Shown here one piece after another: positions 5,424-6,893 of a stretch of DNA of 64,000 nt (position 1 is its first letter; each line of letters starts with the position of its first letter). The stretch lies in IMG/VR virus record IMGVR_UViG_3300024496_000012; one strand, written 5' to 3'. Below the pieces are notes generated by a model. It made no database searches, had not been told where the DNA came from, and saw nothing but the letters and a program-made list of their open reading frames with translations. This stretch comes from a virus. A program made the position numbers and the translations under genes.

Positions 5424-5821
5424 GAATCAGTGAACTGATCGAAAAAAATCTAGAAATAGATAATACAGATCCTTACGATAAAGGAAAAAAGTTTGGTCAA
5501 AAACTATTAAGTCCTTTATCGTGGATTAACACTGATTCTGATAAAGAAAAAGTTGATCCTAATCTTATACAGAATCCTGCCGCTTTTATGAGCAGTGGAC
5601 AAAATAGTCTAGATCTAGTAATACGAGGTAAAGCTCTTTATTCAGCAGACAAAACATTTATACAACGTGTACTAGATCAGATAACCAGTGGGCAGATGAA
5701 ACCCTCTAACGATATTGATGCTAAAGCATTGGTGTCAGGTTTAAGAGCAGCACTTAGTGGTAGAGCTGCTAATCCTCAGCAGATTGAAGCTATCAAACAG
5801 TTCCACAAACAGTTCCGTTAA
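5420..5821 (+). CDS. Hypothetical protein (MRISELIE N-terminus)
   Basis: 133-aa ORF overlapping the previous stop; its stop overlaps the convergent minus-strand stop at 5818-5820. Confidence 0.7.
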   Translation: MRISELIEKNLEIDNTDPYDKGKKFGQKLLSPLSWINTDSDKEKVDPNLIQNPAAFMSSGQNSLDLVIRGKALYSADKTFIQRVLDQITSGQMKPSNDIDAKALVSGLRAALSGRAANPQQIEAIKQFHKQFR

Positions 5822-6051
5822 AAAAACGGCAATCCAGATTTCTTAGTAGTTTCTAAATTTTCTTTGATTATCTCACCTATGATCTGTCTTTCTTCATAGC
5901 TGAGATGCATAGCTTCAGAAAAACTCATTCCGCGCATATACCAACAGAGCTTCATGGCTTCTTTTTTGATTTCTCTAGCCTGTGCGTCTAGTTTCGCAGA
6001 TTCCTGTAAAATCTCCGGCAGAGATAGATTTAAGATTTTACTACGAAAAAA
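5818..6051 (-). CDS. gp51: gp51-like baseplate/tail assembly chaperone domain, missed by the ORF track; probably translated as a -1 frameshift extension of the gp26-like gene
   Basis: Manual translation: FFRSKILNLSLPEILQESAKLDAQAREIKKEAMKLCWYMRGMSFSEAMHLSYEERQIIGEIIKENLETTKKSGLPFF*. There is no start codon or SD near the 5' end of the open frame. The gp51 label is by resemblance and position. Confidence 0.7.
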   Translation of the reverse strand, partial: FFRSKILNLSLPEILQESAKLDAQAREIKKEAMKLCWYMRGMSFSEAMHLSYEERQIIGEIIKENLETTKKSGLPFF

Positions 6052-6054
6052 TTT
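6006..6054 (-). promoter_or_regulatory. Candidate -1 programmed ribosomal frameshift signal
   Basis: In-frame A_AAU_UUU_UUC (6054-6045), a 6-nt spacer after the heptamer, then a perfect 9-bp stem GTAAAATCT/AGATTTTAC (6041-6033/6014-6006). Confidence 0.7.
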
Positions 6055-6893
6055 GATTGGTCCATAGTGATAGGAATATCAAACGTTTCCTTACACTCTC
6101 CGCACTGGACATTTTGAGCTTTTAGCTCAACTTGCTCTCTTAACAACTTAAGGCGATCTTGTATTTGATCAAAGATATCCTTGCTAGTGTTATTGATAAA
6201 CTCTTTGATGATTTTTTTATCAGTAGTTTCACCATCGGGTGTTACGACTCGACTAATACACTCAGCTACAATCTCAACAGTTAGTTCTGTGAGCTTGACA
6301 AAGCTCTTGCCAAACTGATCAACTTTTTGCTCGTCAGTTAACTTTTCATCATTGATGATTGTGAATATCTTTTGTTGCTCTAAAGTCTTAAGTTGTGTCT
6401 TTGTAACTTCTTGATATGTATACGGTCTAATATAGATCTGTAAGGGATCTACTTCGATCATATCTCGGTATTCAAATGCAGCAAACAATGCCATCCAGTT
6501 GTTAAGATCAATGTCATAGGTGTTTTCTGCATTACAATAAGGACAGTTAGAATCGATCTCCATCTTTTCGCCATAGGTAGCGATTCGAATAGCGATCAGT
6601 GCAAAATCAAGATCGATAGCAGGCATTAACCAAGGATCTTTGATAGCAGGTATACAACTTTTAATAAGTTCTACAGTGCTAGCACCAGTAAGCAGAGCAT
6701 CTGGTGTTTTAAACAGTAGTTCATCCTTGGCTGTCATAGCATATACAGGATATTCTTCGTTGGTGCTGACATCTAGAGCACCAGGAGGATAAAACCGTCC
6801 TTTACTAGGCAGTTTTACATATAGTTTTGGTTGTCTGTACCAACCCGCTAAGGGATTCTTTTTAGGTTGATTGACATTCTCTAGATCACTCAT
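6030..6893 (-). CDS. gp26: Baseplate hub assembly / tail chaperone protein (T4 gp26-like)
   Basis: NPLAGWYRQPKLYVKLPSKG N-terminus, MTAKDELL motif, two CxxC motifs (CPYC, CGEC), ends ...SNFF; GGAG SD. Confidence 0.8.
   Translation of the reverse strand: MSDLENVNQPKKNPLAGWYRQPKLYVKLPSKGRFYPPGALDVSTNEEYPVYAMTAKDELLFKTPDALLTGASTVELIKSCIPAIKDPWLMPAIDLDFALIAIRIATYGEKMEIDSNCPYCNAENTYDIDLNNWMALFAAFEYRDMIEVDPLQIYIRPYTYQEVTKTQLKTLEQQKIFTIINDEKLTDEQKVDQFGKSFVKLTELTVEIVAECISRVVTPDGETTDKKIIKEFINNTSKDIFDQIQDRLKLLREQVELKAQNVQCGECKETFDIPITMDQSNFFVVKS

Follow-up and report, generated by a model that had tools for sequence, protein, structure and literature searches.

A probable programmed -1 frameshift in a gp26/gp51-family hub chaperone gene of T4-related giant phages

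We analysed a stretch of 64,000 nucleotides (nt) from the IMG/VR virus record IMGVR_UViG_3300024496_000012 (hereafter the window, meaning this whole stretch), in which a single gene of the T4 gp26/gp51 family, Pfam PF12322, very probably directs the synthesis of two proteins. The gene would encode a hub assembly chaperone of a T4-related giant phage of ~280 kb, produced as a form of 287 amino acids (aa) and, through a programmed -1 slip of the ribosome, as an extended form of 358 aa. An earlier reading made from the letters of the window (the original prediction) had proposed a lambda G/GT-style -1 frameshift joining gp26-like and gp51-like frames at this place, and the comparison of homologous loci bears it out: the slippery heptamer is conserved at synonymous sites, the downstream frame has no conserved start, the hairpin behind the site covaries, natural fusions of the two parts exist, and related lineages carry either one slipping gene or two genes.

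In the mechanism that we propose, most ribosomes would remain in the zero frame and terminate at the stop codon at 6032-6030, giving the gp26-like 287-aa form. A fraction would slip back by one base on U_UUU_UUC (6051-6045), where both tRNA-Phe could re-pair to UUU UUU; a hairpin at 6041-6006 probably assists the slip, and the slipped ribosomes would read 75 more codons in the -1 frame and complete the 358-aa form, whose helical tail would correspond to the C-terminal tail of T4 gp51. Both forms would be needed, at a ratio set by the slip, and lineages without the slip would provide them from two paralogous genes, such as 26 and 51 in T4 or the tandem pair in the uncultured loci L115 and L116. 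That the slip takes place on the ribosome, and with what efficiency, we infer from sequence; the chaperone role is proposed by analogy with T4 gp26 and gp51, and contact with the tape-measure-like neighbour is a supposition.

Layout of the locus

The elements of the locus are the following.

6030-6893, minus strand: zero-frame gene of the short form, gp26/gp51 family (PF12322), with two CxxC pairs; 287 aa, from the list of open reading frames (ORFs) and translation
6045-6051, minus strand: slippery heptamer T_TTT_TTC, in phase (codons AAT TTT TTC), proposed -1 slip site; from sequence and comparison
6048-6054, minus strand: overlapping heptamer A_AAT_TTT, in phase, leading to the same product; from sequence
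6006-6041, minus strand: hairpin, candidate frameshift stimulator, 9 base pairs (bp), the zero-frame stop falling within its 18-nt loop; from folding and covariation
5818-6045, minus strand: -1 frame extension, 75 codons and TAA, predicted helical C-terminal domain of the 358-aa form; from translation and alignment

The zero frame ends in ..GAC CAA TCA AAT TTT TTC GTA GTA AAA TCT TAA, and the arms of the stem (6041-6033 and 6014-6006) form a perfect 9-bp helix that begins 6 nt past A_AAT_TTT and 3 nt past T_TTT_TTC. In the -1 frame, a TGA at 6081-6079 lies nine codons 5' of the slip site; counted from the heptamer, the frame is open for 77 codons (6051 to 5821) and closes with a TAA at 5820-5818, and its earliest ATG, GTG or TTG is the ATG at 5955, 32 codons in. 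The long product, join(6893..6045, 6045..5821), translates to 358 aa, the junction lying between ..DQSNFF and RSK and being identical from either heptamer, and its extension carries the motifs FFRxKIL, WYMRG, EER, NLETTKK and PFF. The original prediction had listed the two heptamers, the 9-bp stem 6 nt after A_AAU_UUU, the upstream TGA and the 77 open codons, all of which are exact on the sequence; its ATG about 30 codons in and its products of 287 and ~358 aa agree with the values above.

The slippery site is fixed at the nucleotide level

The same layout is present at about 140 homologous loci with 30-70% protein identity, among them those of phages RaK2, PA5oct, GAP32, CBB and Atu_ph07 as well as uncultured phages. 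In close relatives from IMG/VR (57-70% identity), AAT TTT TTC G is found in 79/79 complete loci, with GAT once instead of AAT; here the zero-frame stop comes 3-6 codons past the site, and the -1 frame then stays open for 69-72 codons more. NNT TTT TTC followed by a -1 ORF of 66-78 codons is seen in all nine isolate jumbo phages, and the layout recurs in a second environmental clade (L091-L105) and in a third set of 34 non-redundant loci, T_TTT_TTC being present in 32 of the latter. The original prediction had named as its refutation homologues without a slippery site and with a conserved independent start for the downstream frame; such a pattern was not seen in the homologous loci. Homopolymer runs are error-prone in some sequencing chemistries, and an apparent frameshift at six T might be an indel of sequencing or assembly, or the mark of a decaying pseudogene; since the arrangement is shared by about 140 independent contigs and by the finished genomes of nine isolates that come from different laboratories, and since both frames are under purifying selection, we give this explanation practically no weight.

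What sets the site apart from chance is the comparison of loci, not the hairpin by itself. The run is NNT TTT TTC in 53/53 non-redundant loci, while elsewhere in these genes phenylalanine is encoded by TTT in 78% and by TTC in 22% of cases; the codon before TTT TTC varies in its amino acid (Asn, His, Ser, Arg, Asp, Thr), its third base being T every time, and four different codings are found for the second conserved FF, the one at the C-terminal end of the extension. Read from these alignments, the fixation of the heptamer at synonymous sites is the work of selection that acts on the nucleotides and not on the encoded protein. The overlapping A_AAT_TTT is retained in 37 of 38 loci of the window's clade (GAT in the remaining one) and is missing in Phosso, Atu_ph07, XbC2, PA5oct and RaK2, which have CAT, AGT or CGT as the codon before TTT TTC. 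In E. coli, U_UU.Y ranks second among shift-prone tetramers (PMC4066793); the exact heptamer was not found in the text of Sharma et al.

The only loci without T_TTT_TTC are L141 (AAT TTT TCC), which keeps A_AAU_UUU only, and L155 (AAT TTT TTA), which has U_UUU_UUA. As natural variants, they are useful for telling which of the heptamers acts.

The -1 frame is a conserved coding sequence

The -1 frame is open and conserved at every complete homologous locus examined. It is closed within a few codons 5' of the site, and homology sets in at the heptamer, with FFRxxLL. In the alignment of 45 extension sequences (A2), the mean column identity is 73% and positions with W, M and R are invariant; differences within the clade, counted by codon positions 1:2:3 of the -1 frame, are distributed as 11726:8818:21940. 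Beyond the FF, the zero-frame tail is variable in both length and sequence, and the -1 reading of the very same stretch is conserved. A tblastn search with the 77-aa extension matched four records of three isolates (Phosso, Atu_ph07 and XbC2), in every case in the -1 frame and from query residue 1; the matches are significant for Phosso and Atu_ph07 (E 5e-6 and 2e-4), that of XbC2 having E = 1. The extension had no match in Pfam or PHROGs, and an exhaustive profile search retrieved 371 relatives at E<=1e-3, the best 150 of which include small called ORFs of 39-102 aa with starts scattered over profile positions 1-39.

Public annotation has missed the long form. No join is annotated in any of the nine isolate records, and the 358-aa type of product is absent from all nine; in GenBank and RefSeq, seven of the isolates carry a small hypothetical protein, with starts that differ, and in PA5oct and RaK2 the -1 frame is not annotated.

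Natural fusions and gene copy number

Longer proteins were sought with a word-based search with the extension, followed by the profile search above. P0122 and P0124, both of 352 aa, contain PF12322 and the extension in a single frame, and among the best 150 of the 371 profile relatives there are about 20 clusters (at 50% identity) of proteins of 319-351 aa that end in the extension, read in frame; the in-frame arrangement was confirmed on DNA for L115/L116. In the alignment, the junction of the fused proteins is collinear with the one predicted for the trans-frame product (S-F-I-F-R against S-T-F-F-R), and the fused genes lack the slippery run, FF being replaced by xF or FIF. An AlphaFold model of P0122 is one compact protein (pLDDT 88.5, pTM 0.85) that matches the BFVD entry 'baseplate hub assembly protein, T4-like' (E 5e-18, TM 0.67/0.82) and about 50 others.

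Gene copy number follows the same division, the in-frame side being represented by the L115/L116 lineage only. L115/L116 have two PF12322 genes in tandem, the short one ending a few residues past ..SNF and the in-frame long one lying directly behind it. The 34 other non-redundant loci have a single N-domain ORF followed by the -1 extension, with no second copy within ±8 kb; over whole records, PF12322 was counted once in each of two ~280-kb records (CheckV completeness 79-80%) and in two shorter records, and twice in the record of L116. Since a single slipping gene is found in some lineages and short and long paralogues in others, the simplest reading is that both forms are needed.

Three cases stand apart. 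A reading of L091-L106 as in-frame fusions was rejected: the table had joined separate tblastn pieces, and the DNA shows the frameshift. P0123, a metagenome protein with the N-terminus of a 3-hydroxyacyl-CoA dehydrogenase joined to the extension, is probably an assembly chimera, and P0121, another metagenome protein, is taken up below.

A covarying hairpin behind the site

The helix is 83% paired when scored over 47 distinct sequences from the window's clade. At pair 21-48 the combinations are GC in 25, AU in 21 and GU in one, with no unpaired case, and at pair 18-51 they are UA in 33 and CG in six; the covariation score was reached by 0/500 shuffles, and registers slid along the alignment score far lower. 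The paired changes join K/R with a synonymous Ile codon and a synonymous Ser with a synonymous Leu, and coding constraint is therefore no explanation for the covariation. In the window's clade we treat the hairpin as a probable frameshift stimulator; its spacer is typical from A_AAU_UUU (6 nt) and short from U_UUU_UUC (3 nt). The original prediction had suggested aligning homologous loci, and this alignment has returned what it anticipated, a conserved heptamer and, in the window's clade, a covarying stem.

Relation to T4 gp26 and gp51

The 287-aa protein matches PF12322 (T4_baseplate) with E 7e-17 and 62.2 bits, against a gathering cut-off of 24.5, over its residues 53-283 and profile positions 21-218, and the baseplate hub family phrog_150 with E 1.4e-22; the label 'gp26-like' was thus well chosen. 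A search of Protein Data Bank (PDB) sequences with this protein gave no match, nor did a DNA-level search for the locus in the phage collection. Two CxxC pairs of Zn-ribbon-like appearance, found in the window protein, are both lost in L091-L105, P0122, P0124 and the upstream paralogue of L115; these cysteine-less lineages retain the rest of the domain together with the frameshift or fusion.

T4 gp26 (residues 1-206) and gp51 (1-201 of 249) match PF12322 end to end (E 9e-64 and 4e-52); by these matches the two are paralogues, gp51 having an extra tail of about 48 aa. Compared with a profile of this tail, the profile of the extension gives an hhalign probability of 79%, P 1.6e-5 and a score of 29, while ten column-shuffled templates and a reversed one score 6.6-10.5 with P 0.18-0.78. 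Against the gp51 N-domain the extension gives P 0.034 and against gp26 P 0.22, and when it is compared with full-length gp51, the same tail region is chosen (P 2.4e-4). Of the two T4 proteins, gp26 is the closer to the N-domain profile, with hhalign P 8e-9 against P 1e-3 for gp51. The label 'gp51-like' of the original prediction accordingly stands for the C-terminal tail of gp51 and for no other part of it. In this narrower sense the short form would correspond to gp26 and the long form to gp51, the similarity of the tails being moderate.

PMC3004832 lists T4 gp26 and gp51 among the hub assembly chaperones; that such proteins are needed to assemble the hub yet do not enter the virion rests on T4 genetics. 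One GenBank record labels a gp51 homologue 'tape measure protein assembly chaperone'. Phage RB16 (L113) and Slopekvirus (L114) have the gene order 54-51-26-25, with 51 and 26 as an overlapping tandem on one strand, unlike genes 26 and 51 of T4, which lie head-to-head; the tandem order fits an origin by tandem duplication. The mass-spectrometry table of the CBB virion (PMC5259590) lists CBB_247 and CBB_251 without 249 or 250, whereas RefSeq labels the gp26-like protein of CBB (gp250) 'structural protein'.

Observations against a ribosomal slip

Several of our observations weigh against the frameshift as we have described it. The hairpin is weak when judged on its own: with two G-C pairs it folds at -9.1 kcal/mol (z = -1.67), and 12/200 shuffles fold equally well. 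Stimulators of frameshifting typically lie 5-9 nt from the slip site, whereas the spacer from U_UUU_UUC is just 3 nt here and 1 nt in relatives with a longer stem; other clades have hairpins that are not homologous to this one, at spacers of 6-18 nt. With the extension of the window, RaK2 or GAP32 as query, BLASTP gave no significant match to T4 gp51, the likeness to its tail being the moderate one described above. The run of six T could permit slippage of the RNA polymerase, giving the same protein, and four phages (Phosso, Atu_ph07, Turkey5 and XbC2) have an ATG that overlaps the stop of the zero frame, as ATGA or TAATG, so that a coupled separate gene is formally conceivable in them. The last two points belong to full alternatives of their own.

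Under transcriptional slippage, the polymerase would add one U in the T6 run, and the 358-aa protein would arise with an identical junction. The homopolymer of six T is present at nearly all loci, and the metagenome protein P0121, a gp26 C-terminus with the extension, reads ..NFFRSKIL.. in one frame, just as a T7 template or a homopolymer read error would. Bacterial polymerase slippage usually needs runs of 7-9 or more, however, and six bases are short for it to be efficient. TTC is kept at the end of the run in 53/53 loci despite the preference for TTT, the run thus being held at six and not lengthened, and L141 has only five T, yet keeps A_AAU_UUU. Finally, a covarying hairpin downstream is the usual partner of ribosomal, not polymerase, slips. 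We consider transcriptional slippage an improbable source of the long form.

The other alternative takes the 70-77-aa frame for an independent small protein, translated from its own start or by termination and reinitiation. Its separate annotation in seven of nine isolates and the overlapping ATG in the four phages agree with this, but the window offers no ATG, GTG or TTG for 32 codons, and the start has no conserved place: in the 79 close loci, the earliest codon that could serve as one lies anywhere between -70 and +95 nt of the zero-frame stop. FFRxxLL, the most conserved N-terminal motif of the extension, lies 5' of every candidate start and overlaps the zero-frame tail; in the ATGA cases, the Met stands where other sequences have T, S, I, L, Q, R or G; and both the single-frame fusions and gp51 show the domain as the C-terminal tail of PF12322. 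Two separate genes are therefore a slightly poorer candidate still than polymerase slippage, and a -1 slip on the ribosome is the reading that we retain.

Genomic setting and neighbouring genes

The window holds a T4-type structural module with portal gp20, head protease, major head protein and tail fibres. Its closest relatives come from uncultured phages, on contigs that reach about 280 kb, and among isolates an identity of 29-35% is found with jumbo myoviruses: Sinorhizobium Phosso, Agrobacterium Atu_ph07, Pseudomonas PA5oct, Klebsiella RaK2, Cronobacter GAP32, Pectobacterium CBB, Xanthomonas XaC1 and XbC2, and a 121Q-like coliphage. On the 5' side of the frameshifting gene, the following features are found.

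6930-6937, minus strand: TATAAATA box, 37 nt 5' of the ATG; read from sequence
6965-9790, plus strand: 941-aa protein, divergent neighbour, candidate tail tape measure; from conserved position and leads

The TATAAATA box and a GGAG stand before the gp26-like start, within the 71-nt divergent intergenic region; with the established consensus of T4 late promoters in mind, they are likely to be the late promoter and the ribosome-binding site of the gene.

A homologue of the 941-aa protein lies upstream on the opposite strand in 80/80, 14/16 and 33/45 loci of three groups, and in every clade a large protein is encoded head-to-head with the frameshifting gene. The isolate records label this neighbour 'virion structural protein', the RaK2 record notes similarity to a tape measure protein, and in CBB the large neighbour CBB_251 is an abundant virion protein (PMC5259590). 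Protein-atlas features of the 941-aa protein compared with tape-measure clusters give a score of 0.94, which is to be taken as a lead only, and its homologues show sub-threshold Pfam hints. BLASTP to T4 gp29, Pfam at threshold and PDB sequences gave no usable match; among PHROGs it matches phrog_5218, a family of unknown function, with E 5.6e-4. We treat the neighbour as a candidate tail tape measure, and this as a lead.

Elsewhere in the window, ORFs at 46802-48418 (plus strand, E 4e-153) and 56659-58218 (minus strand, E 1e-83) match the PHROG 'tryptophan halogenase' and are adjoined by two ORFs of similar size at 58193-61197 (minus strand), a cluster unusual for a phage structural region. 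Two adjacent giant ORFs on the plus strand, 23783-32473 and 32523-42302 (2896 and 3259 aa), lie downstream of tail-fibre-like genes.

Novelty and significance

The frameshift signal was previously unannotated in the nine isolate records examined. A description of a gp26/gp51 frameshift was not found in the literature, of which subscription journals were incompletely covered, and the word 'frameshift' is absent from the genome papers of the isolate phages. If our reading is right, a G/GT-like expression logic extends to the gp26/gp51 family in RaK2, PA5oct, GAP32, 121Q-like and Atu_ph07 jumbo phages and in abundant lake phages, and it offers a simple reason for the two paralogues of T4, the roles of gp26 and gp51 having been vague for decades. 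It also corrects the annotation of a frame that has so far been left out or recorded as a small orphan protein with arbitrary starts, and the question is directly testable in cultured phages.

Comparison with T4 and with lambda G/GT

As in the window, genes 26 and 51 of T4 belong to a cluster of hub and tape-measure genes. T4 differs in having two genes and no slip: gp26 ends in ..EFFELL, its FF being encoded as TTC TTT, and is followed by gene 25 with no extension, and the tail of gp51 is about 25 aa shorter than the -1 extension. For T4 gene 26, an internal in-frame product, 26', is annotated as well.

With lambda G/GT and P2 E/E', the window gene shares a -1 slip near the 3' end that would yield a short and a C-terminally extended product with a common N-terminus; as in lambda, it adjoins a long, tape-measure-like gene, and a fixed ratio of the two forms appears to be required (facts on lambda G/GT from PMC5009743). 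Judging from their T4 homologues gp26 and gp51, the products may be absent from the virion. There are also differences. The protein family is another one, that of the window being PF12322 with a Zn-ribbon-like CxxC..CxxC; the lambda chaperone gene lies directly upstream of the tape measure on the same strand, whereas the window gene, like those of all relatives examined, is divergent; and the heptamer is G_GGA_AAG in lambda and U_UUU_UUC here. No tail-assembly-chaperone family was among the Pfam or PHROGs matches of the window protein. The original prediction had also pointed to a structural comparison with tail chaperones, and this yielded no specific PDB fold: Foldseek of the P0122 fusion model found nothing in the PDB at E<=0.001, and VIA-align returned only generic helical hairpins (Z<=8.4). 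The G/GT expression logic is well supported, and we do not class the protein as a member of the tail-assembly-chaperone families; that the pair is the functional equivalent of G/GT we propose by analogy.

A broader view can be put forward tentatively, at somewhat less than even chances. The PF12322 family may be the long-missing tail assembly chaperone system of the T4 superfamily, working in a G/GT-like manner, with the PF12322 domain holding the tape measure or hub and the -1 or gp51-type tail recruiting the next component, tube or hub. The pair 26/51 of T4 would then have arisen when a frameshifting ancestor was resolved by duplication, or the change would have gone the other way. A 2016 review regarded T4 as the exception to G/GT frameshifting; if this view is true, T4 would no longer be an exception to the conserved frameshift of the tail chaperones.

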